Assembly (NCBI GenBank): GCA_964409365.1
Contig: CAYPCX010000002.1
Span: 160,984 to 224,983, forward strand
DNA length: 64,000 nt
DNA from: an uncultured Planctomycetia bacterium
Lineage (GTDB): Bacteria; Omnitrophota; Gorgyraeia; Tantalellales; Tantalellaceae
Direction of reading: 5' to 3'
Part shown: positions 2 to 64,000 of the stretch, piece after piece
Position numbering within the stretch: the first letter of the stretch is position 1
How the letters are laid out: each line of letters opens with the position of its first letter
Notes under the pieces: model-generated
What the model saw: the letters and a program-made list of their open reading frames with translations, nothing else
Told to the model about the DNA's origin: nothing
The model's database searches: none
Position numbers and translations under genes: made by a program

Positions 2-3000
2 TATGCCGATGCCGATAAACTCAAGAAGGAGATCGACAAGCTCACGGGCGAACTGGCGGAATACGTGCAGAAGGAATCGGCAGATCCCCTGACCGGTTTT
101 CATGATGTCCAGCGCAGGTGGGTGAGCAGTAATGACGAAATAGAGGATCGTCTCACGGGTAATGTCAGAGCCGCGCTTTCGGGGATCCTCGTTCAAAAAC
201 TTGGGGCTTCAGAAGAGACAGCAGAGACAGCAAGGGAAGTCCATATGGCCGTTATGGAAGGCAGATATAAGGATGCCCGCGAGACCATGATGCAGGAAGG
301 TATCGGAGAAGAACGGACCGTGGAAATACTTCAGGCCGTGATAGCTTTGATGGAACACGATTATACCGAAGCGGAACAGGCTTTGACAAAGCAGGATATT
401 TCAGAGAGTGCTGCCAAAGAAATGGTGAACAGATCAAAGCGCGCCCGGGACGCCCTGCGGGTCATGACCGCGGTAAGAGGGCGCAGGTATGACGAAGCCG
501 AGTATATCCTGGTTGAAAGGTATAAAATAGACGCGACAACAGCCGGGAGTATAATTGACGGCCTGAAGGCGGGTCAGAGTGACGCGATAATCGAGCTTAC
601 TGGTGTGTTGAAGACCTCTGATGTGGCAGCCAGAGCGGAGACCGCGGATGAGATCAAAAGCGCGGTACGGGAACGCGAGGCGCTGGAGCTGGAATGGAAA
701 GTGTACACTGAAGCGGCAAAAAGGGAAAAAGAACGCCAGAACACGATGGTAAGGAAGAACCAGGATAAGCGGATCACGATAAAGGAACAGTCCAGGATAG
801 ACGCGATGATAAGGTCCATAACCGGGGATGACCAGAAGCTCGCTAATTACGCAAAGAATTTCTTCTATTTTGAGGCCTCAGGGCTTGTCCAGCTGGCGCT
901 TGAGCGGGCCGGTTTGACCTGGAAAGACTGCCTGGCCGACAGGAGGAACGAGCTGAAGTTCCTGGAACAGTTGTCGGAGGTATTACACGGTCAGTATGGT
1001 ATAACGTTGGAAGATGGTTTCGTGTTCGAGAATATACTGAGCGATCTGAGGAAAAAAGACCTGATCTGGATGCCGGGGATACGGAAAACGCGAAGAGACC
1101 AGATCGAGCAGAAAGATATAGTGACTTTCATAACCGAGTTCATTGTTCCCGAGTCCCGTTACTATGACCCGGAGACGCTGAAAGATTACATGCAGGCCGT
1201 AAAATCCGACTATTTCGAGAAAGAACGGGACAAGAAAGGCGCGGCGCGCTGGTGGCATGGTGTTAAGATGAGAGCATGGCTGGGTCTGGACTTTCTTGAC
1301 AGGGGAAAGGGCCTGGCAAAGGAAGCCGCCAAGTTAAGCGTGAAGAAAAGACAGGCTGAGTTTACCGAGAAAAAACGCGCCGCGAAAATGGAAAAACTGG
1401 CTAAAGAGATGGGCATAAGCGTGGATGAGTTGGTAAAAAGGTATAAGGATGCCTTGAGTAACGCCTTTCTGGACACCAAGGGCCTGGACAGGCCCTTGAC
1501 GAAAGTTCTTGGTGAACTGACAGAGGACCTTGATGTAGAATCCACGGTTCCCGGGTCCGGGGAGGAACTGAAGAACAAGCTCAGGGAAAAAGCGCATTCC
1601 GAAGGCGCTTTCAAACTCCTGGTATGGGTAGAGCGTCTTGACGCGAGTGGGAAGAACGCCGAGGAGTTTTATGAAATGGCGGAAGCTGAAGCGGGCAAGT
1701 TCGACAGGGAAACGAAGACGGACAAGGAGACGGACATCTCCGCGGAGGATGTGGGAAGCACGCAGCGCGCGGTTGAAGAAAGAAAAATTACCAGGTACGC
1801 GCACGAGCGCGGTGAGCATCTGAGAGTAGCAAGGACCGCGAAGCGGGCGGAACTTCCCGTAATAGAGCTGCCGGTGAAGAAAAAGGAAGGTGAAGAGGAA
1901 CAGGCGGTGAGGGAAGAGGAACCGCCGGCGCGTGATACGACAGTTGAATTGAAGTTTCAGGCACAGGAACAAAAGGCGAGAGAGACGCCCGAACCGGATA
2001 AAGCTATCGTGTACGGAAAGGAAGAACTTGGCGAGAAAGAACTGCCGGAGGTATCGGCGAAAAGAGACGACGCTGTCAAGGATAAACGGATCGATGCGCA
2101 GAAAAAGGAGGTCGAGGCAAGCGGTGAAAAGCAGGAGGTGATGGACAAGGCGACCGAAATAAAGGTGGAGATAGACGGAAAAGAGGTCATTGTCCCGACG
2201 GTGCTGCTGGAAGAAACGGAAGGCCCGGCAGCGGCCGCCCGGGCCATGGTCGCCGCCCAGGCCAGGGCATATGAAAAAGCTCATGCCGCGGGGCTTCCCG
2301 TGCCGGGGCCGCCTGAGGAAAGCCACGTGGTCTTTGTGGGTAAAGCCGCCAAGGCGTTCGAAGAACTTGATGAGGAACGCCAGAAGGAAGCGGTGAAGGA
2401 AGCCCTTTCCTGCGAGGAAGTCCGGGAAGCTCCGGAAGATCTCCGGAAATACGTTGTAGTGAAAGACCTTACACAGGTAGAGACCACGAGTGAAGAAGGC
2501 GAAGAGGTCGGATATCACCGGGAGTATGGTGTCGTGGCGGCAAGCCCGGAAACCGCCAGTGAGATGATGCAGGTATGGGGCGAGTGGACCAAAAGCGGCC
2601 GGGAGGACGCGGCCGCGGCAGCAAAGAAGTTCAACGGCCTTTTCGGTAAAAGATCGGGATATGCGGATGTTCTGGGAGGGCATTTCTTCTACCGTTCCGA
2701 AAGTGCAAGGACGCTCGATGAAGGAAGTGTTAAGGCCTGGAGCCTTATCGACGGGGAAAAACGCGACGCCGGTTTTAGGCGGTATACGGGCCAGCTCGCT
2801 GTTATACAACAGGCCGGCGCGGCAAAACTGAGGGAACACGCCAGGCAAAAGGAACGGGGGGAAGCCCCCGACCGGCCGGATTGGGACGTCGTCCTTGCCA
2901 ATCCCTACATGAGGAGGATCGTTGAATCGAAAGACGAGGTGAAGATCGAATTCAACGCTGAAGGAAAGGTCAGGGTCGGCGAATCGGGCTGGCTCGATGA

Positions 3001-6000
3001 GAAGAGTTTCAGGGATGAGGTCGAGAAAATGGAAAAAGGCGTTAAATACCCGGGAATAGGGGCTTTTGAGCTCAAGGGGCCTGATTGGTGGGAAAGGGTC
3101 CTGAACTGGGTGCGGAATGAAGGGTTCGGATCCCGGAAGTGGTTAAGCGCGGAAGTTATCCCTATCGGTGGGCTCACGGGCACGGCGCTGATAGTTACAG
3201 GTTCTATCCTGACCGTTTTGTGTTCATGGTGGGGTATCGCCGCGATCCTTCTGGGCGTGGCGGTAGGCATGATGCTGGGAAACGTGCGCGTTTCTATGGT
3301 CTCGGTGATAGGCTTTTTTATCCTTTTGAGCAAAGCTTTCTGGGATTTTGGGGTGTTCGTGTTCAAGGATACGCTCTGGAAAAGAGGCGGGGTCAGGATC
3401 CTGCAGAGTTTAAGAGAGGCAAGAACGGATGAAGGATTACTGCGGGAATATTATGCCCCGGAGGAATTCAGCGGGTGGGAGAAGCAGGATGAGGCGAATA
3501 GGGATAGAAGCATAAATGCCTTCTCCGCGCGGATAGATACAGAGTTCACGGTGGAAGAGAAAAATAAACTGGCAGGATGCGGCACGTCGGCTGAGCTTTA
3601 CAGGGAGTCGGCTAAAATACTGGAAAGAGACGCCCTCCATCCGGACTGCAGTTCCGCCCGCAGGGAACGTCTTCTCGAACAGTCTTACCGCTTAGCGATG
3701 GTATCTCACTTGTCGGACGAAGAAGATAAAGAGACCCTGCGCGTTCTGGCGCGGATCTCGGGGGAACGGGGGGACTATGATAATGTCATAAAATTCGGCG
3801 AAAAGGCGCTTGGTCCTGAACGGGAACAGATCGGCTTCGTCGGTGGCGTTTTTGCCGAGCTCCGGGACAGGGTCGGCTTCATCGGTATCCCTCCGGAGGC
3901 TCAGGATATAGCGGCGGTGTTGTACGAAGCTTATACCAGGAAAGGTAAGATGCGGCAGAGGGAGAAAATAAAGAAGGGGATGACCCGTAAAGCTCTCAGG
4001 CAAGGTGTGGAGAGGGTCAGGGCGATACCGGAAGAAGAGAAAGAAGAAGCGGGGTTCTGGAAGAGGTCTTACCAGAATTCGCTTTTGACCAGGAGGATAA
4101 CGGGATTTTTCAAAAAGTATTCCAGCTGGGAATCTTTTAAAGGACTTCTTGGGAATCGACACTTCCAAGCAGGAATGGGTATATTTTCCCTGATATCATG
4201 GATAGCATGGGCGTTCGGCTTGAAGTTGTTAACGGCCGCGGCGTTTTTGTTGCTGGGGAAGGTCGTGCTGGCAGCCGCGTGCGTTATTGCGGTGATCGAC
4301 TTCATCGTTTTACCTTTCTGGCGCTGGTACCGCGCTTTTTCCATGGATTGGGCCACTGCGGGTTACAGGCAAGAGGCCCTGATGATATTGCGAGGGGAAG
4401 ACGTAAGGACAGCCGTGGAATTGGCCGAACAGAACCAGGATGAAGCCGATCAGATACTGGATGCGTTCGATTCAACGCTCGTATCCGGGGCGGGACGCTT
4501 CTTTTTCTGGCTGGCGCCTTTCTTTTTTGACGAGAAGACGGTCTCTTCCATCCTGAATTCGGCGGAATATTATCTTAACCATATCGAGGACAGGGAAGCG
4601 GGCATGAACAGGGCCGAGAAACTGCTTCGGCCGCTGCAGACAATAGGCGGCAGGGCGTTTATCCTTAGGCCCGGGAACCGGGAATTGCGCGAGAGGTTGG
4701 ACCTGCTTGAAGGTCTGGTCCGCATCAGGAAGGGAGAGACGGATATCGTCGTCGCCGGCAGGCCGCTTTCCGGCGTGACGGGCGAGTTTTTCGACGATAA
4801 AGGTAAATTAAAAGATGATATCAATGCGGAGACGCTCGGGGTTCTCGCCCAGGCCTTTGAGGCCCAGGCGCGGGAAGAAGAGCGTGAAACGGTCATCGGC
4901 AAGCTGGAAGGATTACGCGACGTGTTTTTGCCCAAGCCGGACGAGGAAGAGGTGGTCGGCGGAGACGGTAAGGTAATAAGCGAGGATAAAAAAGCGTATG
5001 TAACGGGACGGGATATACGGTCTGAAGAAAAAAGAAAAGAGTTCGACAGTCTGAACAATATGGTAGCGAGGCTCAGAAAAGGCGAAAAGGGAGAGGAGAC
5101 CATTAAAGGGAAAGAAGAGGGGTCGAAAAAGGCCACGGATGCCCGCGCCGGGGTGGAGAAAAGGGAAGAAGTGAGCGTTCCCGAGGCCGAGGAGGAACCC
5201 GCAAAACCGGAGATAGTCCGTTCTGCCGGGGAGCTTGAAGAAGAGCGAAAGATCCTTGAGGCGAAGTACAGGCAGGCCCCGGGTGATATGGATACGAGGA
5301 AAGAGCTTGTAAAGGTCCACAGGGACCTCGCGAAAGCTTACGCGAAAGAGGAAGAGACCGCATGGTTCCCGCGCCGCTGGTGGAGACGGCTAAGGGGGAT
5401 AAGGCAGTGGAACCTTGAGGAAGCGGTAAGGCTGGCAAGGGAAGGCGACACGTATATTGACGGTGGATTGGCCGCCGAAAGGCTTATAGAGCACGGTATC
5501 GATCATGTTTACGGCGCGCCGTGGTACAGGCGTTTTTACGAAGGCAGGCTTATAAAGGACATGGGACTTATCCGGGAAGCGCTGGACACGGTCAGACAAA
5601 AAATAGAAAGCAGAGAGCCTCTTTCCGATGAGGAAAAGGAACTCATGGCGGTCGCGTTCTCGAACCTTCAAAAATTGACGGCAATGCTGCTGGATACCCG
5701 GTGGGCCAGGGATCTTCACCATCCCCGGGCGGGTCCCATCAAGGTACTTCTGGTAGAGGGGTTATCGCCGGTGCTTGAATTCTTTGCCTCCCGGGCGCCT
5801 ACGGAGGAGATCACTGCCGAGACGATAGATGCGGCTAAAGAAATGAAAAACGTAGTAGATGAAAAACTTAAAGAGGATCTTAGTAACCTGCGGCCGTGGT
5901 GGTGGCAGAGGATAGGGCTAAGGTACGGCTTGTGGTCTCTGGGGCGCAGGCTCGGGAAGGTCCAAAGGGCGATAGATGACGCCAAGCGCGATCAGAAGGT

Positions 6001-9000
6001 CGAGGGCATAGATAGAACGCGGGATATTGAAGGTTTCAATGACGAAAAAAGAAAAATATTGGAAGTGACCGCGAAAACCCGGCTCCACCTTTTGGTCATA
6101 AACGCGAGCAGGGCTAAAGCGATCGAGAAGGATCCGGCAGAAGCATGGGGTTTTATCGTGAGGGTCCTTGGCGGAGACATTGATAAATGCGTGGGAGAGT
6201 GTACCGCCAGCGGAGCCATATATACGGATCATGATAAATTCATGGAGATGATCGAAAATAAGGTCGCGGAAGCGGAAAAGGAGGCCGGGGTCGAGGTCCC
6301 CGATATCGTTAAGGCGATGTTCCTGCGCCGCTTTGAAGTGGCCTGGGCTGAAGCCAACCGCAGGCAGTATAGCGATAAACAACTTGAAGACATGAAAAAA
6401 AGACTCGTTGAGTTAACGACAGAAGAACGGAAAAGAGCGAGCAAGGAGATAACGGGAGAGGAGGAGAGGATAAAAAGGTTAACTAAAGCGCCGCTGGGAG
6501 AGATATTCATCGCGCCGGTACCGGATCCGGACCTGCCGGACGCGTTTAAGGCATGGTTATCGCAGAGAAGGGAGCAGTTTTTGGAAAAAGCCGGTAATGT
6601 TATACTGAATAAGATGCTGGGTGAGGTGGAGAAACTTCTGAAGAAACAACCTGAAGATATCGGCTTGCTGGCCCTGAGAAAGGATCTTCTCAGGAGGATC
6701 TACGTGGGGACCGCCATGGAAGAAGCGAAAACCGAAGAAAGGGATGTCGTAGTTACGGATAGAATAGAGGACTTTATCGATACGTGTCTTTTCATAATGG
6801 AGCTTTCCGATGACCCCGCTCAAAGGGAAGAGGTGCGGGATGAGCTCAGAGATCTTCTCTCGAGGATGCCCCCGGGTGAAAGGACAAAATTCAGTGACAA
6901 GGTCCAGAAGAGGATCAAGGAAGCCCGCAAAGAGGCTGAACGCCCCGATGCGATGAAAAAGGATATAGACAGGTACGCCGGTTTCCTGGGGGCGGCCTTT
7001 TATCTTGTTGATGAGATACCTGTGAAAAGGGAGATCGTCCAGGAGCTGTTCGAACTGGCGAGGGAAAAGGACGATCCGGGTGTTCTCGCGATAGCCGAAG
7101 AGACCGGGAAAAGCCTTCTGGATCTGAATTTTACCGGACAGCCGGACCAGCTTAAGGAGTTCGTGAAGTTCCTTCTTTTGACCTACCCTGAAGGTGATCC
7201 CGACAGGGCTATATCCGTGTTCGATTTCCTGAAGGGTACGATCAAGGGGTTGAGGCAAAAAGCGATCGAAACGGCACGTGTCGATCTTGATAAGGTTTTC
7301 AGGTTCGAGACGATCAGGATCATCGGGGAGGTCCTGACCGATGAAGCGAACACCGGAAGTTTGATAAGCATGGCCCCGGGACCGTTACCGGAAAAGGACA
7401 GGTATCTTTCTTCTTTGCATAACCTCTATATAAGCCTGGAAAAGACGGAGTCCGATATCTCGGCTGAAAAAGAAAGACTGGAAACGGAGCCGGCCAGGCT
7501 TCAGGCATTCGAGGATAAGGTGAAAGGCCTGGTCAGCGTGCTTGAGGAGTGTAAAAAGCGCCTCGGTAAAAAGGAGAGAACAGAGAAGGGTATCGCTGTT
7601 TATACTCCCGGTTCTATCAAGGAAACGCTTCATGATACGAGGAGGGAAATAGAGCTCGAGGCAAGACGTGGATATTGGCAGGCCTTGCGTAACGATGCCG
7701 AGGCTTCCTACAGGGAGGGAGAGAATAAGGCCGCGGCGGATGACGAAGAGGGTTCGGAGAAAGCTTATGAGGCGGCTATAGAGACCGGCAAGAAAATGAT
7801 CAAGGACGGCCGGGAGACCGGGTACATAACGGGACGGGGCGGAGTCGCGGACGATGTTGATAAAGAAACAGCGGACATGGCCCGGGATGTCAACGACAGG
7901 ATCATACTCTCCTACAGGGGGCTTATAAGGTCCCTTGAAAGGCAGGGAAAACCCGCCGAGGCGGCCGAAAAAGAGTTCGAGATGCGGCACTGGGCGGCAG
8001 ACAACAACAATACCCTCCAGAACGTGCCCGGCGACGAACGTGTCGCCGCCGAAAAGGCCAGAGAGCGGATGATACGCATGGAACCCGATAAAGCGGAACT
8101 TTTCCGCGACGCGGCGAAGGCGAGAAGCTCTTTGCACGAAGACACGTACAAGGCCGCCAGGGCTAAAGGGAAGGAGCTGGACGAGACGCGAAAGAAAATA
8201 GACGAGACGGCAAAAGAAATAAGCGCTTCCCGCAAGAAAGCGGACGGGATACGGCAGGATATTAAACAGCGGGAAGCGGAAGAGAAAACCTTCCGGGACA
8301 GGATCAAAGACATAAGGGCGCGGATAGCGAAGAACCTGGCAGGGGGGGAGTCCATATTACAGCAGGAGCCTTTGTTCCAGGAGGCGTTGAAGGAGCAGTT
8401 CAGGCTGGAAGAGAAACGGGAAGAGTTGAAAAAGCTGAGGGAACAACTTGATGAAGAAGAAAAGAAGGTCGAGGAGCAGCGCAAGGGAAAAGAAGACCTT
8501 GAGGGCACGTTAGAAAAACAGAAATTGGAGCTGGAACTTATCGAAGACCGGCAAAAAGCCGAATCCGCGAACATGAGCGTGCCTATCGATTTCGGCGAGG
8601 AGAGGGACAGTTTCCAGCGATCCACCATTGATTATATCCGTGCTATCGAGCTGGCGGAGAAAGATAAGCAGGATATCGCCGACGGCGCCGCCGAAGGGCT
8701 GGTATATTTGAGCGGTACGCCGGAAAACACCGGGTTCATCCTCGGCCGGGTGCAGCAGTCCCTGGATTCGCTGGATGAGAGGATCAGGGACAGGAAGAAA
8801 AGGAGGCTCGCCCGCCAGCGGCTGGAGAAGGCGAAGATCGGGATCCTGCAGGGTCTTTTGGAGACAAAAGAAAAGAGCGGCCGGGAAGCGCTCATGGACG
8901 AGATGAGGACCGTGACCGAAGAGACCGCGCAGGTCACTGTCACGGTCGAAGGAAAACCGTTCACGGTCACGGTGGACAGTGTAGAGCTTCTGGAGTTCCT

Positions 9001-17530: not shown

Positions 17531-17546
17531 CACAAAGGAGGTGGCG

Positions 17547-17580
17547 AAGGGGTGGGTACCCCTCGGGGCGCCCACCCCTT
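17547..17580 (+). terminator. GC-rich hairpin (10-bp perfect stem AAGGGGTGGG / CCCACCCCTT) 17 nt after the gene-1 stop; possible terminator or RNA structure
   Basis: The inverted repeat is read directly. It is not followed by a clean T-tract, so intrinsic-terminator status is uncertain. Confidence 0.35.
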
Positions 17581-17670
17581 GAAGTGTACACACCCGAAGT
17601 GTACACACCCGATGTGTAGGCACGGTTAATGATCCAAACCGCCATCGCCCGGCAACACAAGGAGGTGGCG

Positions 17671-17705
17671 AAGGGGGGTGCCCCTATGGAGCACCCCCTT
17701 CTTAT
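17671..17705 (+). terminator. Second GC-rich hairpin (AAGGGGGgTGC / GCACCCCCTT) followed by the T-rich ttcttatat; possible intrinsic terminator
   Basis: The inverted repeat has one bulged G and a T-rich 3' tail. It belongs to the duplicated copy of the gene-1 3'-end module. Confidence 0.4.
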
Positions 17706-17774
17706 ATACACACCCGGTGTATACACCCGATGTGTGAGGATGGTTAAGGTGGAAAATAGTTGGATAATAGGGTA

Positions 17775-17802
17775 TTGACGTATTCTGAAAATGTGGTAAA
17801 AT
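17775..17802 (+). promoter_or_regulatory. Putative sigma70-type promoter P1 with extended -10 (TTGACG, 16-nt spacer, TGgTAAAAT)
   Basis: TTGACG at 17775-17780 and TAAAAT at 17797-17802, with TGG immediately 5' of the -10. It lies in an AT-rich intergenic region upstream of the 18039 ORF. Confidence 0.45.
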
Positions 17803-17810
17803 GAGATATC

Positions 17811-18034
17811 GGTTAGGAAAATAGAAAGCCTAGTTAGATAGAGGTTAGGGTGAAACAGGGTATCAGAAGATTAGGTTTTTTATTTTATCTTTGAAAAGTT
17901 AAGGTACAAAATAGCCAGAAATAACACATTGACTAATGTTAAAAATGTGTTAAAATAGGTTATATGTGGTTAGGCTAAAAAAAAGCCAATAAGGTTAGGT
18001 TAGGGTTAGGTTGAGTAAGTAAAGGCAGGTTAGG
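17811..18034 (+). repeat. Dispersed and tandem GGTTAGG (TTAGGG-like) heptamer repeats in the leader of the 13,091-aa gene
   Basis: GGTTAGG at 17811, 17843, 17968, 17993 and 18028. The tandem run ggttaggttagggttaggtt lies at 17993-18012. Related GATTAGG/AGTTAGA copies occur at 17831 and 17871. Confidence 0.6.
17929..17956 (+). promoter_or_regulatory. Putative sigma70-type promoter P2 with extended -10 (TTGACT, 16-nt spacer, TGtTAAAAT), a near-duplicate of P1
   Basis: TTGACT at 17929-17934 and TAAAAT at 17951-17956. The core aaaatgtgttaaaat is almost identical to aaaatgtggtaaaat in P1. It lies ~85 bp upstream of ATG 18039. Confidence 0.45.
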
Positions 18035-18038
18035 TATT

Positions 18039-54000: not shown

Positions 54001-57000
54001 TCGTGGAGTTCACGAGTATTGAAGAGGACGGCAGACAGAACGTCGTATCCGTAAGTTCCGTCAATAGCAGCCCCATACTTGATGCCGCGGGCAATGTGAT
54101 AGACGGCGCGATCCATATATATGATAACAATAATAGTGAAAGGATAACGGTAATTTTTGGCGCTAATTCCATACGGATAAGGAAAATGAACCCGCAATCC
54201 TGTGCGCACAGACGGGCCATCGTGGAGCACATCAAGAAGTTCGCGTCCATGGCCCAGCAGGATATACAAGGTGTTTACCGTCTTTCCTGGATGGCATGGG
54301 CGGTAGGGTTGATCCTGACATTACTGGTCCCGTATCTTCTGTATGTCCAGCTTGGGGTGACGCTGTTGGTCGCCCATATCCCCATGGTGATAGGCGCTTT
54401 TATACTGGCTGTTTGCGGGTTCGAGAGGGCATATATGTGGTGGCATAAAGAACCTGGTAAGGCTCCAGAAAGCCCTTACAGGTTCGGGAGGTTCGCCCGT
54501 CATATGCTGAAATATCTCCTGCCGATCGCGGTCCTCATGGATTATTACAACCAGATGTACGAGCCCGCCAGAAGGTGTGTCGCGAGATGCTGGTTCGTCA
54601 TGGCGCTGTGGTGGGTTGCTGAAGGGTTCTGGACAAGGGGTAGGACCGACGCAGTGCAGATAGGGCTGGGGGAATCCTTGGCGGACGCGAAGATCCTGCA
54701 TGAAAAAGCCAAGAGCTGGGTTTCCTTCAGGGGGCCGATCGCGACCGTTACGATCTTAGTGATCGTTATCATCCTTATACTCCCGGTCATATTTTTCGGC
54801 CAGCTGATCCGATTGGAGATCGACAGGGCGCATGGCTTGCTCGACAGCGATCTTAACAGGTATGTAGCCGGGGATATCAGTGATGAAGGTATCCTTAGAG
54901 AGAATTATAACCGCCAGGAGCACGGCAAAGGGGCCGGATGGGTCGCTAAGTGGATATGGGGACGTTACAACACGAAAAGGTCCGTCGAGCAGCGTGTCGG
55001 TTACCTGCGCGCGAAAATAGAAGAGCTTGGAAGAGCGAACGAGCGCGGTGAAAGCGAGAGCGAGAAAGAAAGGCGCAAGAAAGGCGTCCGTGTATGGGTG
55101 GAAGAATTCGAAAAAGACATGCGCAGGCTGGTCAGGAGGAACCCGAACCTCAGAAGTTACGCCTGGGGCCGTATCCTTGAATTATACAGGGCGCTGGATA
55201 ACGCCGAGTGCGGAGGGATGGAAAAAGGCGGGTACCTGCCCCTGCCTGCTGAAAACGGTGAAGCCGGAATGCCTGCAGGAAAACCCGAAGCTGACGCCGG
55301 TAGAACAGAAGAAAAGGACGACAAGGCTCCAAAAGGCGAATACCTGGTGCAGCTGGACAAGCAGAACCCGGAGCAGGGTTTTGATTTTGAACCTGACAGC
55401 AAGAATAATGTCTTGCGGGTCGATCTGAGGTTCCCCGATTCGCTGGACGGGTGCCGTCTCGCGGCCGATATTTCTGTCGGCGGGAAGGGACTCGAGACGG
55501 TCTTGATAGGCCCGAACACCAAACCCCTTCTTGAAAGGAACTGGGCCGTGATCTCGGAGAAAAGGATCCACTCGCTCGGTTACGAGAAGACCACTGAAAA
55601 GTGGGTAACGTATTATATCGTCCGGAAGGACGGGGGCCCGCTGAAAAAAGCCAGGGTGACGATCAGGATCACCGCTCCCGGGGACAGAACGGCTCCCATA
55701 GGCAGCGAGATCATGGGAAGGATCGGGATAAGAGGCCCGAGAACCCAGAAGCTGAAATTCAAGCCGTTCGATGATGGAGGAAAGGAGGGTCCGCCCCAGG
55801 TACGGGAGAGCAAGCGTCCGCCTAAAGATAAGCACCGTTTTGACAAGAAAGAAGAGAAAGCCAGACGGACCGGTATGAGGGTTCCCAAGAAGAAAGAGAA
55901 GCGGGGCATCGCGCCTCTCCCGCAGAAACGACCCCAGCCAAGGGGACGGCAGAAAGGGTTTACGCTTAAACATCTACTGCTTCTTGTGGCGGCTCCCGGT
56001 CTGATGATGATCGCGTGGTTCAATCCGGGGCTTTTCCTGGCGGTCGTGGCGGGCGTCTCGATAAGTTTCTTTGTCGGGATGGCGGCGATGAGGCCGGCCC
56101 GGTATTATGATATATCCGGGATGGAACTGCGTCTCTATATCCCGGAAGATATACGCACTGAGCTCGCCCTTACGAGGGACGTGGACATGAGACTGATCAA
56201 TGAGAGTGGAGTTGAACTGGTGGCGGTCGCCGGTCATGACAGGGAAGCCATGATAGAAAAGATCAACGAAGAGACCAGGGGTGAAAAGGTTCTCTGCGCC
56301 GTTCTGGACAGCACCGCGATAGATAGCGGGTTCAGGACGTCGGATGGCGAAGTGGATACTGAAAAGCTCGGGGAACTCATGCAGGAATTCGCCAACCAGG
56401 CACAGAGAGACATCATCAGGCTCATGCATCCGGAGCTTGAGGATCTGGATGTGCCGGGTGTAGAAGAGATCATGAAAGCCGGACGGATCCGTGACGTCGC
56501 GGTCCTGTACGCGAGATTGTTGGAAGATATAGAGTCCATGGAACTTGCCAGTAAGAGCATCGCCGATATGAGATTGAACAAGCTTCATGTTGACCTCCTG
56601 CCGGAAAAAGTGGCCGGGGTGGACAGGTATGTCGCCGAGCTCGAGCAGAGGGATAAGGCTAAACATATAAGCGTGAGGGCCAGGGGCCTTGCCGACCTGA
56701 AGTTCATCGCCAACGCCATAGCGGGCATGGGACTTGACAGTGATGCCGGGGAGGCCAGGGAGAACGCGTCGAAGTTCATACAGGTAAGGCTTACCGACCA
56801 GAACGTGAAGACGAAAGATGACCTGGTCAAATACATGAAAGATACGGGCCTGGACCGATACCTGAACGTGGACAACGTTGTGCTTGTAACACCAGAAGAC
56901 GATACCTCGCTCAAGGGCACGCTCGAGATGGTGAAACGCACCTTCGCGGACGCCCGGGATCACCAGATCGCCATAGGTGATATAGTTACGGAGGGCGACG

Positions 57001-57314: not shown

Positions 57315-57331
57315 TACAGAACCTAACCTGT

Positions 57332-57395
57332 GAACGCCCCCGATCCCTTCCGGCTTTGCCAAGCGAGCCGGGGGAGGGGGCGTTTCACTTTTACA
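57332..57395 (+). terminator. Rho-independent terminator of the 13,091-aa gene
   Basis: Long imperfect hairpin GAACGCCCCC...GGGGGCGTTtC (57332-57386) with an inner CCGGCT/AGCCGG pairing, followed by the T-tract cacttttac. It begins 18 nt after the TAA. Confidence 0.55.
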
Positions 57396-57481
57396 GTAAA
57401 TCTTTACCATGTAATAAGTTATGTATTTATCCACATCTTCTCCCGGATATAGTTAGGTTTTAAAATAGTTAGATTAGGTGG

Positions 57482-57510
57482 TTGACATTATTATATAATA
57501 TGTTAATATA
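57482..57510 (+). promoter_or_regulatory. Candidate promoter region for the third giant gene (TTGACA at 57482-57487 in a very AT-rich stretch; -10 ambiguous)
   Basis: ggTTGACAttattatataatatgttaatatataaac. Several TATAAT-like hexamers occur at non-ideal spacing, and GTTAGG-like motifs lie immediately upstream (57453, 57473). Confidence 0.25.
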
Positions 57511-57693
57511 TAAACATATAATTAGCATATTAAAAAGTCAGAAATTTACCGTTTTAGGAGATGCGTTGATAATAGTATTATTATGCGATATTTAGACAAC
57601 GGGAAGGGATTTGTGCAGTTCGGGTAAGTGAACTTGTTTAATAAGATAGTTATATATTGTGATAAGTAATACAAAACTGAGAATATAAGGGTT

Positions 57694-60600
57694 ATGAGGC
57701 AAAACAGAGCATTTCTTAAGATCATAGCGGTTATCGTAGCGGGTGTTTTCCTGCACCAGCAGATTGTGTGGGCGGCGGGGGATATGACAGGTCCGGTAAA
57801 GCCGGTTCCCGCGCGCGCCAATACAGCCCGTTCGGAAGTCGTTCACGATATTCGCGTTCCCAGCGACCTTGCCCAGCTGGACGAGATCGGCATGAACGGC
57901 AGCCGAGATCTCATAATAAATATCCAGGATTGCCATTCTTCGCTTTCCGCCCAGTATTCTATCGTGGAGATACTGAAACGCCTTCTCCAGGACTACAGCG
58001 TTGATGTAGTGGCCATAGAAGGCGCGACAGGATATGTCGACACGTCCATCCTGAAGACCTTCCCCGATACCGGTATCAAGGAGAAAACGGCCGATTACCT
58101 GATGAAAGAAGGCAAGCTTTCCGCGGGCGAGTTCTTCACGGTCACCTCGAACGAGGATATCGCGCTGTACGGAGTGGAAGATAACGGTCTTTACCGGGAG
58201 AACGTGAAAGTCTTCCGCGATATCTATTCGAAGAACCGCGAAAGCATAGACACGCTCGATCTTATCCTGGAAAAGCTCAGGAAGAAGGAAGACAAGGTAT
58301 ATCAGGAGGACTTGAGCCGCATGGTGTATAAGTCCCGCCTTCACCGCGACGGCAAGATGAGCTTTGATGTCTACTGGGATTTTCTCGAGGAGATTTGCAG
58401 GGAGAGGGGCGTTCCCACCGGGGGATACCCGGCCATCAACGGTTTCATGGACTGCGTCAGCCTGGAAAGGACGATAGGCTTCAGTGAAGCCACTTCCCAG
58501 AGGAAAGAGCTGATCGATGAGCTGATGGAAGGGGCCGCGAAGGAAGATCTTGAAGAAATGGTGCTTAAGTCCCTTTCGTTCGAGAAAGGAAAGATCACGG
58601 AACTGGCGTATCACACCTGGCTTCTGGACCTCGCCGCGAGAAAAGGCGCCCGGACGGAAAAATATACGCAGCTTTACAGGTATGTAGACTACATCGAACA
58701 TTATCAGCGGCTTAACATCATCGGTCTCCAGAAAGAACTGGATCGTATAGAAGAGAAAGTGCTTGAGGAGCTGTTCTCCTCGCAGGAAGAGCGAGAACTT
58801 TACAGGCTGGTCACCCTGGTAGAGCTTGTGAGGGCGCTTTTTGAGATAAAACTTTCGGGAGAGGACGTATCCCGCCTGTCCAGGAACATGGATAAAGTAA
58901 CGGTGGATGAGGTCATGAGCTTTATTGGAGGTAAGGGCACAAATGACGATCAGGATGCCGTCCTGGATATCAAAAGGCGTTTGGAGATGCTTCTCCCGGA
59001 AGCTAAAAAGGCGCTCAGGTTCTACAAGCTGGCTGAGAAGCGCAACAAGGCGATGTTGGCGAATACGGCATCCACGATGCGCAGAGAAGGCAAGCATGTA
59101 GCCGCCCTTATCTCGGGCGGACACCATTCCCGCGGCCTTACCGAACTCATGAAAGAGAAAGGCCTGTCCTATCTTGTCCTCATGCCTAAATTCTCTTCTG
59201 ACAGGTCCCGCCCGTATATCGCGGTCTTGACGAAAAAGACCGGCCCGTACAGAGAGCTTGCCACGAGCGGCGCGTATGACCTCGCGCTCGAAGCTTATTT
59301 CGACAAAGGGGACCTCGACGCGCTGGAGGAGACGCTGGCCTTCGCCGTGGGGCAGAGCGTCCTGGCCGGGAAGTATACAAAGGTCGAGATAGGAGAGTGG
59401 CTTAAAGCTTACGAAAAGGCTTACGAGGAGCTCGAAGGAAGCGAAAGAGAGCAGGCGCTGGCCGCCAAGGCGATAACGCCGGAAGACCTCAGGGAACGTC
59501 TCGAGAGGCTGGATGTCGTAAGCGTGGATGATGGCGCGTGTGAGATCAAGATAAACGGCAATAGTTACCGCGTGACCGGCGAGGATGTGGAACTTATACA
59601 GCCCGCCATAGAGGGTTTGGAGGTAAGGGCAAAAAAATACCCGGTCCAGGCTTTCAGGATGATGAAAGACCGCTTCGAAAGGGCGAAGGCGGCATGTGAG
59701 GAAATACTGCCCGCCGCGTTCATAGACACGGTCTCAAGATCGGCCGAGAGAGGAAGGATCTTCAAGAACACGATCTCAGTCCTGAAAGCCGGTGCCGGGA
59801 CAGGCTTGACCGAGGCGCTGGGCGGCGTAGCGCTTGCCTGGGCGGCAAGAAAGCAGCGTTCTATACCGATCGCGGGAACGGGTGACCGCGTCCCTGGCGC
59901 ACCTGTATCGTTTGATGATGTAAAAATGATGTCTCCCGACAAATTCCAGGAACTTGTATCTTTTTATAAGTTTCGGGTCGTTTCGGGAAGAAAACATGCC
60001 GTGGTCCTGGCGCATGACGACCTTGATTTCGTGATAAAGATGAGGAACGAGCCGGTCCCGGAAACCGGTGAGGGAGATATAAACGGATCGTTCTACAACT
60101 ACGGGAAGTACGGGAAGATGTCCGGCGTCGGCAGGGCCGAATATTCTATGGCAGGCAATTTGACGGTTTCCCTGGAGAATGGGGTCCAGCTTAGCGATGA
60201 AAATGCCGTACTCCAGGAAAAGACGGATTCATTAGCCGAACTGATTCGCGAGGATGTCGAAGCGGGAAGGATAAAAGAAGCCAAGAATAAGCTTGACGCT
60301 TTCGCGGAAGTGCATGAAAGTGTCGCCGGAGAAGGTCTGGTCGACAAACTCTTCCTGACCGGTCCCGGTAAAAGTACGAGGGAATACTTTACGAACATAG
60401 GGCGGAGCAGGAGGAGCGGGAAGTGGGTCCACGTCGATACCGCCGACCTTACACATGAAGTGCCCCCGGCCGGTGTTCCTGAAGGCGGACTTGATAATGT
60501 CAGAAGCTGGTTCCCTTTCAAAGATAACCCGGAACTGGCAGATCATTTTGACAACCAGATCATGCCGCGGCTGGCAAAACTCGGCAGTAAACTTGACAGC

Positions 60601-63600
60601 GGTCCCCAGCCGTCGCGGCGGTCCATATTACTCCTTGTCGGAGCGGCGGTGTTAGGGTTGGGGATGATCCGCGGCGCTACGGCGCAGGAAAAAGCGCCGA
60701 GACCCGCGGAAGGCGAAAAAAAGCCGCCCATAGTTGCCACGAAAGAGAAGAAAAAAGAGATCCCCAGGCACATTTTAAAAGTAGCCAAGGAAGTGAGAGT
60801 GCCGCGCGAAATCATAGGAGAAAATGAAGAAACCTTCAGGGCCTTTTTGGAGCCTGCGACCTATCTTGTCGACAGGGTTCTTGAATGTACCGATAGCGGA
60901 ATGAGCGCGGGATACAAAAAGGACGTCCGGTTTCTCCTGCTCATGACGGCCCTTTCCGAAAGCTATCTCCAGGGAGAGGCGGCGATCAGGCCCCTGGTCA
61001 AATTTACGCCTTCCACCGCGAAGTACCTTCTGGGTCGTATCGATGCCAGATCCTGCAATCCCGTGTTCGAACAGGCGGCGGACAGGAATTTCTGCGATAA
61101 CTGGAAGGAACTCGTATACCACCTGCCCCCTTGGGAGATAGTGGCGAAAATGGAGGAGAAGGCAAAAAAAGAAGGCAGGAAGTTATTCGCCTATGGTTCA
61201 CATTATCGCGAGTTCGAGACTTTCCTCATGAGCTGGAAAGTCAGGGAGCTTATAGAAAGCGCGCTGGATATGGATTGGAAAGATATTGTTGCCATGCCGG
61301 AAGACGACATAATGGTTACACTGGCAGGCAATGACCTTTTCAATATGATAATGACCAGGTATTATTTTTGGCTCAAACCTGCTCCCGTGCCCAGCTGGAA
61401 AAGGCCGCCGGAAGTATATAAGTATTATGTAGATGTCTTGGGGCCCGGGTCTCCGCTTCCTACCGGGAGATTTGATGAACTAGCCAACCGGGTGAGCAAG
61501 AGCGGTGTTCTTGATGGCATCAAAGGGAGCGTAAGGGAAAAGATAGAGGCCGAGGCGCGGGAGCTGTTAAAGAAAGAGCTCGCGGCAAGAAAACCGAAAG
61601 AAGCAAAAAGACCAGAAGAGGCGAAAAAACCGAGCCCCGTGCAACCCCGGGGGTTAAAACCGGCAAGACCGGAACGTGTTCCGGGAAAAGGGCTATTATG
61701 GGTGCTGGCGGCGCTGGGAGTGGTCGGATTCATTTGCATTATCATATTTTTTGTATGGCAGCCGAAGAAGGCCGGCTCTGCTTCGGGACAGCCGGAAGTC
61801 CACAGGAAATTCGCGGCCGAGGAAAACCTGCGGTGGAAAATAGGGGACCTGTATAAAAAAGAACGGTTCCCGCACCATTTCTGGGAGACGGAACTTGCCG
61901 TGAAGATAGCCGAAGAGATGGGGCTGAAGGATGAGGCGGTCTTTCTGGCTGTAGCGCTGTACGCGCATCATCTCGGCCATGAACCCAGAAAGCGGTATAA
62001 AGCTAAATTTAAGAATATGGATGATATCTTGTCTGAACAATATCCTGATCCTGAACCTGGATCAGGGAAACCATGGCACATACGGGACAAGGTAAGATGC
62101 CTGTTGAAGGATAAGGGTGTCGATGATGCCGCGGAACCCGAACAGAAGTTCGAGGTCTTCTGCGGCGGGATGGCCGGGCTGATGGGAAAGGGCTCTCTCG
62201 ACGGTGAAGAAAAGGAAGTGGCCGCGTCAATGGTCAGCGCCAATTTCTGCGCGCGGAAGATGTTGAAAGAAGCAGATGTAAAACTTCCGGAGGAAGCAGA
62301 GCTGATGCTTGACTATTACGGCAGGTACGGAAAATTCCAAAAAGCGTATGAAGCGGAGCAGGAGCCTATCCGGCAGAGGTGTCCGTCTATCGAGCCCGAG
62401 AACGTGGCTAAGCTTATCGCCGTTATCAGGGTGGCGAGCACGTTCATGAACAGGATAGACCCGGCGGTTCGCGGCGGGCAAAGGGGCGAAGGGACCGACA
62501 CTTTCTATGAGGCGCTGAAATTCGTTATCAAAGATATTGAGGAACAACAAGAGACGGATGGCGTGACTTCCGACGCTGTGGGCAAGCTGCTCATGTTGTT
62601 CAAAGAGCAGGACGAGATCATCAAGTTCACCCTGGCCCAGTACAGGGACGGGGGTGAGAGGCCGGCCATGTCCATACTGCAAAGCGACGGGAGATTTTTG
62701 AGATTTTTGACATATACCAATTATCATCTTATAAAACGCAACATGGACTTGATAGAGAAATATGAAGATTATCAGGAGGGTGTGACTGCGAAATTATACC
62801 GCGACTGGGCAAGAAATATAAGAACCAAGATCATCACAAAGGGCGTAGGCATGTTCGTCGCGGGGCTAGTCTATATCGTGATATTCGCCTGGTTTTATCA
62901 TGTAAGCCCCTTAAACCTCTCCTGGGTGGTCGTAGCCTTGTTTTTAAGCTGTTTCCTGGTGTCGATGGGCTTGTATGAACTTTTCTCGTACTGGTGGTAC
63001 TTGCGGATAGCCTGGCATATCGAAAAGGCCTATGAAGAATCTATGGCCGATCATGCCAGGTCGATCTATCCTGCAATGATAGCCGAGTTGAAAGAAGCGT
63101 GCGGCGAGGCCGATGTAAGCAAGGCAATTAAAACGCTCGTAGAAAAAGGCGGCGGGAAAGACATGGACGATTCCGCAAAAGAGAAGATCTTCGTGGAAGA
63201 GATGCGAAAGATCGCCACGCCTGAAAAACTCGAGGCAAGAGGTGTATCTTATGACAGGGAAGAGTTAGTTGAAAGGCGTAGGGATGATTATATTTGTGAC
63301 GCGATAGCCGTGCGCATTTTCGGCATGCATTTACAGGTTACGCACGGCGGGGATGATTGGGCCAAGCTGGAAGAAAATTTCATGGAACGTTCGATCCATG
63401 GTTTGGTCAGAGATGCCTTGGTGAACATGCACTACCTGAAGATCCGGGAGAAGTCCAGCAAAAAGGTCGCCGAATGGACACAGGAACCGACCATGGAGGA
63501 AATAGGACAGGAGCAGTCCGTTTATGACGTCAGGCTGGCTGAAAAACTCTTTCAGGAAGAAAAGGAAAAATTTCCGATCGCCTGGAGGAATGAAAAAGGA

Positions 63601-64000
63601 AAGTTCGTGAAAACCGAAACCGGTGCGTGGGAGAAACTGCCGCCTATAGTGCGGCAAATAATAGGATGGCACGACCTTTTCGACGATGCGGCAACATACA
63701 TGTTCAGGGCGTCATGGCCATTTTGTTATTTTTATGCCTTTTTTATAGGTGAAAGATTGGAGGTCGACCGCTATAACAAGATACTGAAAGGTACGATGCA
63801 CGACATGCAACCGGTAGCGACATATGCAAACGTTCGCCAGAGCTTAAAACGCGGAGGGGGCAGACGTAATGAGATGAGGTTTGATACAGGCAGTAGGACA
63901 TGGGTCTGGAAGGAAGGGGACGGCGCGGCCCTTACGGCCGGCATAAGCGATGAGCCCAGGGGCAGTGAGCTCAGGCGAACCGTCGTTTCGATCCAGGAAA
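57694..64000 (+). CDS. Third giant-protein gene, 3'-truncated by the window edge (at least 2,100 aa). Its N-terminal module is paralogous to that of the 13,091-aa protein.
   Basis: ATG at 57694 in frame 1. The frame was checked open at 60601, 61681, 62641 and 63961, with no stop before the window end. N-terminus MRQNRAFLKIIAVIVAGVFLHQQIVW aligns with FFLKIVSIILIAIFTHQQIGW of the upstream gene. About 55% identity continues over the following ~480 aa (INIQDCHSSLSAQYSIV vs IHIQDAHASLAAQESIV; AALISGGHHSRGLTELMKEKGLSYLV vs AALITGGYHTKGLTKLMKEKGLSYLV). Confidence 0.75.
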   Translation, partial: MRQNRAFLKIIAVIVAGVFLHQQIVWAAGDMTGPVKPVPARANTARSEVVHDIRVPSDLAQLDEIGMNGSRDLIINIQDCHSSLSAQYSIVEILKRLLQDYSVDVVAIEGATGYVDTSILKTFPDTGIKEKTADYLMKEGKLSAGEFFTVTSNEDIALYGVEDNGLYRENVKVFRDIYSKNRESIDTLDLILEKLRKKEDKVYQEDLSRMVYKSRLHRDGKMSFDVYWDFLEEICRERGVPTGGYPAINGFMDCVSLERTIGFSEATSQRKELIDELMEGAAKEDLEEMVLKSLSFEKGKITELAYHTWLLDLAARKGARTEKYTQLYRYVDYIEHYQRLNIIGLQKELDRIEEKVLEELFSSQEERELYRLVTLVELVRALFEIKLSGEDVSRLSRNMDKVTVDEVMSFIGGKGTNDDQDAVLDIKRRLEMLLPEAKKALRFYKLAEKRNKAMLANTASTMRREGKHVAALISGGHHSRGLTELMKEKGLSYLVLMPKFSSDRSRPYIAVLTKKTGPYRELATSGAYDLALEAYFDKGDLDALEETLAFAVGQSVLAGKYTKVEIGEWLKAYEKAYEELEGSEREQALAAKAITPEDLRERLERLDVVSVDDGACEIKINGNSYRVTGEDVELIQPAIEGLEVRAKKYPVQAFRMMKDRFERAKAACEEILPAAFIDTVSRSAERGRIFKNTISVLKAGAGTGLTEALGGVALAWAARKQRSIPIAGTGDRVPGAPVSFDDVKMMSPDKFQELVSFYKFRVVSGRKHAVVLAHDDLDFVIKMRNEPVPETGEGDINGSFYNYGKYGKMSGVGRAEYSMAGNLTVSLENGVQLSDENAVLQEKTDSLAELIREDVEAGRIKEAKNKLDAFAEVHESVAGEGLVDKLFLTGPGKSTREYFTNIGRSRRSGKWVHVDTADLTHEVPPAGVPEGGLDNVRSWFPFKDNPELADHFDNQIMPRLAKLGSKLDSGPQPSRRSILLLVGAAVLGLGMIRGATAQEKAPRPAEGEKKPPIVATKEKKKEIPRHILKVAKEVRVPREIIGENEETFRAFLEPATYLVDRVLECTDSGMSAGYKKDVRFLLLMTALSESYLQGEAAIRPLVKFTPSTAKYLLGRIDARSCNPVFEQAADRNFCDNWKELVYHLPPWEIVAKMEEKAKKEGRKLFAYGSHYREFETFLMSWKVRELIESALDMDWKDIVAMPEDDIMVTLAGNDLFNMIMTRYYFWLKPAPVPSWKRPPEVYKYYVDVLGPGSPLPTGRFDELANRVSKSGVLDGIKGSVREKIEAEARELLKKELAARKPKEAKRPEEAKKPSPVQPRGLKPARPERVPGKGLLWVLAALGVVGFICIIIFFVWQPKKAGSASGQPEVHRKFAAEENLRWKIGDLYKKERFPHHFWETELAVKIAEEMGLKDEAVFLAVALYAHHLGHEPRKRYKAKFKNMDDILSEQYPDPEPGSGKPWHIRDKVRCLLKDKGVDDAAEPEQKFEVFCGGMAGLMGKGSLDGEEKEVAASMVSANFCARKMLKEADVKLPEEAELMLDYYGRYGKFQKAYEAEQEPIRQRCPSIEPENVAKLIAVIRVASTFMNRIDPAVRGGQRGEGTDTFYEALKFVIKDIEEQQETDGVTSDAVGKLLMLFKEQDEIIKFTLAQYRDGGERPAMSILQSDGRFLRFLTYTNYHLIKRNMDLIEKYEDYQEGVTAKLYRDWARNIRTKIITKGVGMFVAGLVYIVIFAWFYHVSPLNLSWVVVALFLSCFLVSMGLYELFSYWWYLRIAWHIEKAYEESMADHARSIYPAMIAELKEACGEADVSKAIKTLVEKGGGKDMDDSAKEKIFVEEMRKIATPEKLEARGVSYDREELVERRRDDYICDAIAVRIFGMHLQVTHGGDDWAKLEENFMERSIHGLVRDALVNMHYLKIREKSSKKVAEWTQEPTMEEIGQEQSVYDVRLAEKLFQEEKEKFPIAWRNEKGKFVKTETGAWEKLPPIVRQIIGWHDLFDDAATYMFRASWPFCYFYAFFIGERLEVDRYNKILKGTMHDMQPVATYANVRQSLKRGGGRRNEMRFDTGSRTWVWKEGDGAALTAGISDEPRGSELRRTVVSIQE
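57830..59240 (+). other. Paralogous copy of the TraB/Tiki-like N-terminal domain in the third giant gene (TM helix at ~57712-57770)
   Basis: INIQDCHSSLSAQYSIVEIL ... VAIEGATGY ... HVAALISGGHHSRGL. It is ~55% identical to the gene-2 copy across the domain. Confidence 0.4.

Follow-up and report, generated by a model that had tools for sequence, protein, structure and literature searches.

A locus of three co-directional giant genes related to those of Omnitrophota, with an N-terminal header of probable TIKI/Ere type shared by two of them

The 64,000-nt stretch of contig CAYPCX010000002.1 examined here (the window, whose positions serve as coordinates throughout) is filled by three co-directional frames without stop codons, designated g1, g2 and g3, all on the plus strand. 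The explanation that best accounts for the evidence as a whole, with a probability of roughly 0.7, is that these frames are three genuine, independently transcribed genes for multi-pass envelope proteins of a class known from the phylum Omnitrophota. The identity of the genes is the firmest part of this explanation, since they are very probably real giant membrane-protein genes of the Omnitrophota type. The mechanism proposed for their products, self-export and assembly of an envelope apparatus, is put forward tentatively, at rather less than even odds.

A role in attaching to other microbes and preying on them is ascribed to the giant genes of Omnitrophota, and these genes have been described as poorly conserved and almost free of domains, which has blocked experiments. 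The locus and its relatives provide several testable handles, 1) an N-terminal module, designated the header, with a defined set of catalytic residues in at least 570 loci, 2) a cassette of a SecA-like motor and a membrane block that has very few relatives, 3) TolC-type repeats within the chain, 4) a recurrent neighbourhood of resistance-nodulation-division (RND) pump genes and 5) a conserved gene order. If these handles hold across complete genomes, many giant genes could be classified by them, a large subset of the total, and the ideas of self-export and processing would become open to tests by mutagenesis.

Gene frames, boundaries and transcription signals

The three genes, listed below, occupy nearly the whole window.

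2..17530, plus strand: g1, giant open reading frame (ORF) of 5,842 codons plus stop, with its 5' end beyond the window
18039..57314, plus strand: g2, complete giant gene, 13,091 aa from an ATG
57694..63999, plus strand: g3, giant ORF of at least 2,102 aa, with its 3' end beyond the window

An earlier note on this DNA had described three co-directional giant ORFs across the window, and the stop-free frames at 2-17530, 18039-57314 and 57670-63999 bear this out. The g3 frame comprises 2,110 codons and its likely start is the ATG at 57694 (MRQNRAFLKI...). The open frame of g1 was likewise as described, while its length requires a small correction; the frame holds 5,842 codons and the minimum of 5,821 aa given previously counts from the first in-frame GTG. 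The probability that 13,091 stop-free codons would arise by chance at the base composition of the window is about 1e-286. The window has a GC content of about 52% and a purine-rich coding strand (59.6% A+G), with a positive GC skew in every 2-kb interval and a positive AT skew in all intervals except one, and both composition and purine skew are uniform throughout. The codon bias noted earlier was confirmed, AGG plus AGA making up 62% of the Arg codons and ATA 46% of the Ile codons, as was the Lys/Glu-rich composition, the proteins being rich in Glu, Lys and Arg. Antisense ORFs of 150-593 aa overlie the giant genes in number, for example at 42972-44753, 57592-59127 and 1334-2848 on the minus strand. 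Long antisense ORFs are numerous because the coding strand is purine-rich throughout, and they are best read as shadow frames without independent support.

The possibility that the frames are an assembly or annotation artefact, in which genes of ordinary size are concealed by repeat collapse, by chimeric joins or by use of the wrong genetic code, is extremely improbable. Tandem Repeats Finder (TRF) detected eight micro-arrays in the window, each of at most 2.5 copies, and there were only three direct repeats, all of them short, in 64 kb. Repeat collapse is therefore unlikely, as there are virtually no DNA repeats available to collapse. The uniform composition and skew and the negligible probability of such a frame by chance also speak against an artefact. 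Moreover, the g2 start, its internal blocks, its exact C-terminus and the following g3-like gene are conserved in a contig from another species, described below, and most related header ORFs are still open where the examined DNA ends, after 3,800 aa or more.

The same analyses did not bear out the internal tandem repeats that had been ascribed to the genes. Apart from the TRF micro-arrays and the three short direct repeats there was nothing to correspond to them; self-BLASTP of the proteins with sensitive settings found no internal repeats, and repeated protein units were limited to the tetratricopeptide repeats (TPRs) of g1 and two repeats of the outer membrane efflux protein (OEP) type in g2. 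Many separate transmembrane (TM) clusters had been reported in each gene, and this was upheld by Kyte-Doolittle hydropathy, on which all TM calls given here are based. There were 9 TM segments in 4 clusters in g1, 33 segments in at least 6 clusters in g2 and 5 segments at 4 positions in g3. Pfam scans took in all 21,043 residues of g1-g3, and Rfam and tRNA scans of the window gave no matches. The domain content gave no pointer to a phage, plasmid or defence system, and these readings were set aside without a dedicated search.

The regions between the genes contain the following features.

17504..17753, plus strand: tandem duplication of 125 bp comprising the last codons of g1 and a terminator hairpin (direct-repeat family, spacing 125)
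17775..17802, plus strand: promoter-like site P1 of g2, TTGACG-16-TAAAAT with a TG extended -10
17929..17956, plus strand: promoter-like site P2 of g2, TTGACT-16-TAAAAT with a TG extended -10
57330..57388, plus strand: terminator-like hairpin behind g2 (-40.5 kcal/mol, z -5.2), followed by a T-rich tail
57482..57509, plus strand: promoter-like site of g3, TTGACA-16-TAATAT with a TG extended -10

The two promoter-like sites of g2 and the one of g3 each match the sigma-70 consensus at 10 of 12 positions, and GC-rich hairpins of -36 to -40 kcal/mol (z -3.7 and -5.2) lie 3' of both stop codons in the window, those of g1 and g2. The sigma-70-like sites and strong hairpins agree with the previous suggestion that the intergenic regions have their own promoters and terminators. 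Behind g1 there are two hairpins, at about 17537-17595 and 17640-17701 (-36.2 and -37.5 kcal/mol), because the end of the gene and its hairpin have been tandemly duplicated. A consensus terminator scan did not call the g1 and g2 hairpins, as their T-tails are weak. The duplicated unit takes in the last ~27 bases of g1 and has 91% identity over a 32-nt seed repeat. Seven of the nine copies of GGTTAGG in the window fall within 224 bp (17811-18034), downstream of both g2 promoters. The motif was neither enriched nor conserved upstream of the header genes in 23 related loci, so that the cluster looks lineage-specific.

The header module and the organization of g2

The features of g2, in order along the gene, are as follows.

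18216..20138, plus strand: header module (aa 60-700) with an alpha/beta core, probably of TIKI/Ere/ChaN/TraB type
18243..18299, plus strand: N-terminal signal-peptide-like or anchor helix (aa 69-87), from hydropathy
26028..26138, plus strand: Pro/Thr/Ala-rich linker 1 (aa 2664-2700)
27396..27536, plus strand: Pro/Thr/Ala-rich linker 2 (aa 3120-3166), directly N-terminal of the SecA-like motor
27603..29300, plus strand: SecA-like ATPase motor (aa 3189-3754) with nucleotide-binding domain 1 (NBD1), preprotein-binding domain and NBD2
29316..31628, plus strand: helical linker and membrane block of ~9 helices (aa 3760-4530), TM cluster at aa 3973-4331
37011..37295, plus strand: TolC-type OEP repeat 1 (aa 6325-6419), 38.1 bits against a Pfam cut-off of 22
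38844..39368, plus strand: TolC-type OEP repeat 2 (aa 6936-7110), 27.7 bits against a cut-off of 22, over the full length of the Pfam model
48138..56108, plus strand: C-terminal polytopic region (aa 10034-12690), ~24 hydrophobic helices in 5 clusters
56124..57311, plus strand: conserved C-terminal domain (aa 12696-13091), which aligns to the very C-terminus of giant ORFs from other species

The header is common to g2 and g3, with 37% identity over 625 aa. An N-terminal module shared within the array had been claimed previously and is thus present in these two genes; the N-terminus of g1 lies beyond the window. In g3, the module is located at 57694-59553, with IQDCH at aa 77 and GGHH at aa 475. 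As their identity is just 37%, comparison of the two sequences indicates that the headers are old paralogues and that there was no recent duplication. The idea that g1, g2 and g3 as a whole are recent duplicates was rejected, since only the g2 and g3 headers are alike and g1 has nothing significant in common with g2 or g3.

A search with the g2 header returned 65 protein matches, the best with 57% identity, and a scan of one genome per species showed that at least 570 loci encode the module, none with a match above 56% identity. Sequences nearly identical to the window were absent from the species representatives and from JGI metagenomes, in which an exact 50-mer search gave 0 hits. The descriptions of related loci given here rest on the best 80 of these at least 570 header loci in species-representative genomes; L-numbers (L003, L012 and so on) are labels of such loci. 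An alignment of 42 header sequences has ten invariant residues, Q144, D145, H147, Q153, E175, G176, R515, G540, G541 and H543 (g2 numbering). The AlphaFold (AF2) model of the header, with a predicted local distance difference test (pLDDT) score of 86 and a predicted template modelling (pTM) score of 0.81, has a small parallel-sheet core that is split by a helical insertion of ~300 residues.

A parallel beta-sheet core like that predicted for the header is also found in the TIKI/Ere/ChaN/TraB-PrgY-GumN superfamily, which includes RRSP of the MARTX toxins and HopBA1. The header resembles the superfamily in having an acidic-x-His motif after strand 1, a Glu 28 residues further on after strand 2 and a G-G-x-His motif after a late strand. 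The spacing of 28 between H147 and E175 is that of His85 and Glu113 in Bcr135 and of His3902 and Glu3930 in RRSP (PMC6254334), and the invariant D-x-H, the Glu at +28 and the later His correspond to the 2His/2Glu set of the superfamily. Unlike the superfamily, the header has the ~300-aa helical insertion in its core and Asp in place of the first Glu, and it is located N-terminally on giant membrane proteins, behind a signal-like helix. No match to the Pfam families concerned (PF01963, PF05139, PF04187 and related families) was obtained at E<0.01. The header is considered, with moderate confidence, to be a probable TIKI/Ere-type hydrolase.

Several other observations concern this end of the protein. 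The header profile weakly matches troponin C EF-hand pairs (E about 4e-4) in the helical insertion, at about 18800-19000. The match falls at profile positions 199-256 and 290-341, has the consensus 'hrdGkisFseYw' and keeps the calcium ligands in part; it may be a degenerate EF-hand-like motif or due to chance. The cytoplasmic N-terminus of g2 (aa 2-17, 18042-18089, continuing to about aa 45) carries a short degenerate 'AWQ' peptide repeat (DAWQ, KTWQ, KAWQ, NAWQ), which TRF reports as an 18-bp array of 2.5 copies. The header was also found on ORFs closed at 367-1,150 aa (L016, L018, L040, L065, L075 and others), and it is therefore not limited to giant genes, unless the short ORFs are frameshifted or misassembled fragments.

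The header of g2 is followed by a variable region of ~2,460 poorly conserved residues that has the two Pro/Thr (PT)-rich linkers at its end. Such linkers had been attributed to all three genes; they are present in g2, at aa 2664-2700 and 3120-3166, and there are none in g1 or g3. The SecA-like motor begins directly after the second linker. The Pfam families SecA_DEAD, SecA_PP_bind and P-loop_SecA all match, and a PDB search retrieved SecA and SecA2 chains with a lowest E of 1.6e-16. Its motifs are intact, namely the Walker A sequence LRTGGGKT, the DEAD box LFDEAD, TNMAHRGIDI and GRADRGAHQG, the arginine finger included. The motor thus has the NBD1, preprotein-binding domain, NBD2, Walker A, DEAD box and arginine-finger motifs of canonical SecA. 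In contrast to canonical SecA, with which it has ~23% identity, it lies 3,190 aa deep in a giant chain and is fused to a membrane block of its own. The match to the NCBIfam SecA model covers only positions 88-590 of 814, with 98.7 bits against a cut-off of 814, and the helical scaffold, wing and C-terminal domains were not found (no PF07516 match). The closest relatives of the motor are Omnitrophota fragments with 45-47% identity, compared with ~23% for ordinary SecA.

The motor and the membrane block together have 37-41% identity over ~1,300 aa in five other loci, and the distance from the header to the motor ranges from ~270 to ~2,460 aa among the relatives. An exhaustive search of 1.84 billion representative proteins found 20 relatives of the membrane block, and the SecA motor was directly N-terminal of the block in all four relatives tested. 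The block matched no Pfam family, its profile retrieved nothing meaningful among PDB sequences and a search of a word-indexed protein database gave zero matches. The conserved association in these sequences indicates that the SecA motor and the ~9-helix membrane block fused to it form one cassette.

Further along the chain, in another variable stretch rich in Glu, Lys and Arg, both TolC-type repeats pass the gathering score of the TolC/OEP family (PF02321). TolC is a trimeric protein of ~450 aa, whereas the g2 repeats are situated in the middle of a chain of 13,091 aa. The polytopic C-terminal region is partly conserved in a 7,014-aa orthologue from another species.

The visible part of g1 has TM clusters and a TPR region, and in that of g3 the header is accompanied by four further TM segments; Pfam found no SecA-like domain in the visible part of either gene. 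One feature is listed for g1.

9731..14305, plus strand: scattered TPR repeats of g1 (aa ~3244-4768), matching TPR_17, TPR_19, TPR_14, TPR_11 and TPR_6

The TPR region matched designed CTPR proteins in the PDB sequence search, and the designed TPRs were the only result when g1, g3 and the last two-thirds of g2 were searched in this way. Almost no relatives of g1 could be detected, and a protein-based search with its first 500 aa gave no match. The sole part of g1 with relatives among the related loci examined is a stretch of ~130 aa that follows a TM pair (aa 5228-5354, 15683-16063). It has 37% identity to the upstream giant ORF of locus L012 and 34% to the header gene of L064, and may be a small shared domain.

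Related loci, the proposed mechanism and its alternatives

The named protein relatives of the header, among the 65 matches, all belong to Omnitrophota/Omnitrophica. The best 80 header loci are mostly from metagenome-assembled genomes (MAGs) of Omnitrophota, with Ca. Omnitrophus magneticus and a complete chromosome from the phylum among them. A minority come from one automated MAG series that has the NCBI label 'uncultured Planctomycetia' (isolates named 'binchicken' or after an SRP/ERP run). The loci labelled in this way (L003, L004, L006, L007, L009, L012 and others) interleave in similarity with those of Omnitrophota, and the labels may be coarse or wrong. An origin in another phylum of the Planctomycetes-Verrucomicrobia-Chlamydiae (PVC) group, such as Planctomycetota or Verrucomicrobiota, would be consistent with the label of these many related MAGs and with the long proteins known in both phyla, and a GC content of ~52% is not diagnostic of a phylum. 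This origin is nevertheless very unlikely, given that the explicitly named relatives are all from Omnitrophota, as are most of the loci, and that the contrary labels stem from a single automated series whose genes are interleaved with Omnitrophota genes. The likeness to Omnitrophota giant-gene loci proposed in the earlier note is supported by these relatives and by the SecA-motor hallmark and many TM segments of g2.

The organization of the locus recurs in another species. Two overlapping loci on contig CAZNEE010000003.1 (L058 and L079, 120424-163300), which could be stitched exactly, contain three giant ORFs in a row, all in one direction, with lengths of at least 3,166 aa, 7,014 aa and at least 3,843 aa. 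Of these, the 7,014-aa ORF in the middle is collinear with g2, with 49% identity in the header and four C-terminal blocks that extend up to the last residues. The gene that follows it has a g3-like header, with 51% identity to g3 versus 40% to g2. The gene boundaries and the order of g2 followed by g3 are therefore conserved between species. In most of the 80 loci, the header ORF reaches the limit of the examined DNA without closing, over a length of at least 3,800 aa. Upstream neighbourhoods were surveyed in 40 related loci whose header gene is preceded by 6 kb or more of sequence, and in 19 of them a co-directional ORF of 1,500 aa or longer lies immediately next to that gene. Two header genes on opposite strands, head to head, were observed in Ca. 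Omnitrophus magneticus (JYNY01000197.1, L025:2723-6702), unlike the co-directional arrays.

In 17 species, a co-directional operon encoding a TolC-like OEP, an HlyD-type membrane fusion protein (MFP) and two AcrB-type RND transporters directly precedes the first header gene and ends 200-400 bp upstream of it. The loci are L034 (97-9643, PLNN01000019.1), L003, L011, L020, L021, L022, L027, L032, L038, L041, L049, L051, L071, L072, L073, L075 and L076. On PLNN01000019.1, examined in separate pieces, the operon is followed by header genes that start at ~19, 48, 80 and 90 kb. These complete OEP-MFP-RND-RND sets, syntenic with the header genes of the relatives, resemble the tripartite RND pumps encoded by MdtABC-TolC-like operons. 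The context is not universal, as in one locus the upstream genes are those of a histidine kinase, a sigma-54 activator, RpoN, a TPR protein and EngA. No RND homologue, MFP or separate OEP gene was found in the 64-kb window; should this locus follow the pattern, its operon would be located upstream of g1. A more far-reaching proposal is that these loci constitute a distinct type, in which an OEP-MFP-RND-RND operon is followed by serial co-directional giant genes, each with an active TIKI/Ere-type hydrolase header and some with the SecA-motor-plus-block cassette and internal TolC-like repeats, whose products would jointly build a trans-envelope apparatus functionally coupled to the pump. This proposal is regarded as improbable.

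For the giant proteins themselves, the following mechanism is suggested. The polypeptide would be stitched many times into the cytoplasmic membrane. The SecA-like motor and the attached membrane block would drive the export of the protein's own huge extracytoplasmic loops, as in the cis-acting translocase of West-Roberts et al. (2023, bioRxiv 10.1101/2023.11.21.568195). The TolC-like segment of g2 would reach toward or into the outer membrane. The header, if it is an active hydrolase of the TIKI/erythromycin-esterase type (a peptidase or esterase), may process the giant protein or a partner, and the assembled array could coat the cell surface or serve as an attachment apparatus for a predatory or epibiotic way of life.

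Several observations weigh against this interpretation. The taxon was inferred from homologues with at most 57% identity. The assignment of the header to a superfamily depends on a predicted structure; the Pfam hints were all sub-threshold (the ChaN family PF04187, E 0.068, in 2 of 42 members), the Foldseek comparison of the model with the PDB was not significant (best superfamily match E 0.6), and the header profile found no superfamily member among PDB sequences. The single-sequence AF2 model of the TolC-like region of g2 has a pLDDT of 45, with long helical hairpins at low confidence, and a profile built from the OEP proteins of the operons had no hit in g1-g3. The 7,014-aa orthologue of g2 lacks the SecA/TM cassette, which therefore is not essential to all members of the family and was gained or lost within one orthologous gene. 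Finally, the number of strongly hydrophobic helices between the header and the motor is even in 7 of 7 proteins (0, 0, 0, 2, 4, 4, 4), which places the header and the ATPase on the same side of the membrane. An ATPase has to be in the cytoplasm, yet the N-terminal helix, with its positively charged n-region (in g3, MRQNRAF...VWA|AGD), predicts export of the header. As read from hydropathy alone, the topology is contradictory, an export signal on the header standing against a cytoplasmic ATPase.

The catalytic set of the header also bears on whether the giant polypeptides persist. If the ORFs encoded polyproteins, to be cleaved by the header hydrolase or some other protease into numerous proteins of ordinary size, there would be no 13,091-aa protein in the cell. 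This idea is partly compatible with multi-pass envelope proteins from three genuine genes, and the TIKI/Ere superfamily does include endopeptidases such as Tiki and RRSP. The same suggestion has been made for peptidase domains of the C39 and S8 types at the N-termini of other giants (West-Roberts et al. 2023). The conserved blocks are parted by poorly conserved spacers of variable length (270 to ~2,460 aa from header to motor), and PT-rich linkers lie beside the motor. However, neither cleavage sites nor repeated motifs at the junctions came to light, an exported header would be on the wrong side of the membrane for many of the junctions, and protease activity is not implied by a superfamily that also has esterases and haem binders. 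A polyprotein is accordingly judged unlikely, with perhaps one chance in several.

In a different fate, the product would be a secreted RTX/MARTX-like toxin or adhesin exported whole by a TolC-dependent type I or RND-type system. The position of the OEP-MFP-RND-RND operon directly upstream of the first header gene in the 17 related species is in keeping with such a route, and RRSP, to which the header is structurally related, serves as an effector domain in MARTX toxins. The dozens of strongly hydrophobic, clustered helices, in contrast, favour integration into the membrane. The Pfam scans detected none of the repeats typical of RTX proteins, dockerins, TSP3, cadherins or Ig-like adhesins, and neither an ABC exporter nor a C39 domain was found in the window. 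Protein export is not known for RND pumps. Secretion of the whole protein thus seems most improbable, and envelope proteins that remain integrated in the membrane are preferred.

Comparison with known Omnitrophota giant proteins

Seymour et al. (2023, PMC10066038) found ORFs longer than 20 kb in most classes of Omnitrophota, "with few annotated domains and poorly conserved". West-Roberts et al. (2023) described giants of up to 85,804 aa, all with many TM regions, most of which have a divergent SecA DEAD domain and a preprotein-binding domain without the scaffold and wing. They proposed that the SecA-like domain exports the giant protein itself as a cis-acting translocase, and noted implausible predicted localizations; the N-terminal regions generally had no identifiable domains except C39 or S8 peptidases. 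Nielsen & Lui (2026, bioRxiv 10.64898/2026.06.07.730766) catalogued 916 proteins of at least 10,000 aa, the longest having 147,155 aa, and clustered 5,761 proteins; their PF07517 architecture cluster consists of 20 proteins in which SecA_DEAD is the only Pfam domain. About 24-28% of the classified Omnitrophota contigs carry at least one protein of 10,000 aa or more (Nielsen & Lui 2026). The earlier statement that proteins above 10,000 aa are very rare in prokaryotes is consequently correct overall and does not extend to Omnitrophota, where they are common, so that a protein of 13,091 aa is unsurprising in this phylum.

The locus departs from the published giants in several respects. The published work has focused on proteins above 30,000 aa (West-Roberts et al. 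2023; Nielsen & Lui 2026), beside which g2 is small. The reported neighbours of giant genes are type II/IV secretion clusters (preceding), PilZ (following), glycoside hydrolases and mobile elements (West-Roberts et al. 2023; Nielsen & Lui 2026), whereas here and in the relatives the neighbours are other giant genes or the OEP-MFP-RND-RND operon rather than type II/IV secretion genes and PilZ. The published N-termini are mostly domain-free apart from C39 and S8, while g2 and g3 have the conserved TIKI/Ere-like header. Two named subtypes from the same phylum, the Archaeovorin type (the 39,678-aa protein of Velamenicoccus archaeovorus) and the Dockerin type, are also giant, TM-rich and equipped with a SecA-like motor. 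The Pfam scans of g1-g3 found none of the Archaeovorin set (glycosyltransferase, methyltransferase, glycoside hydrolase, peptidase, SAM-dependent methylase, NUDIX) and no dockerin or TSP3 repeats, which places the genes of the window outside both subtypes. Neither West-Roberts et al. (2023) nor Nielsen & Lui (2026) mention TraB, Tiki or esterase, or RND, AcrB, efflux or HlyD. Four features have no description in the giant-gene literature examined, namely the header, the cassette of motor and block, the TolC-type repeats within the chain, and the context of array and RND operon.

In its general architecture, g2 agrees with the SecA-type giants of Omnitrophota, being a single ORF of more than 10,000 aa with numerous TM helices in many clusters, few recognizable domains, poor conservation, and a motor located next to TM helices. 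As in the published proteins, the divergent SecA DEAD and preprotein-binding domains are present without the scaffold and wing. The comparison supports the conclusion that the locus is a further example of the giant membrane-protein genes already described from Omnitrophota.

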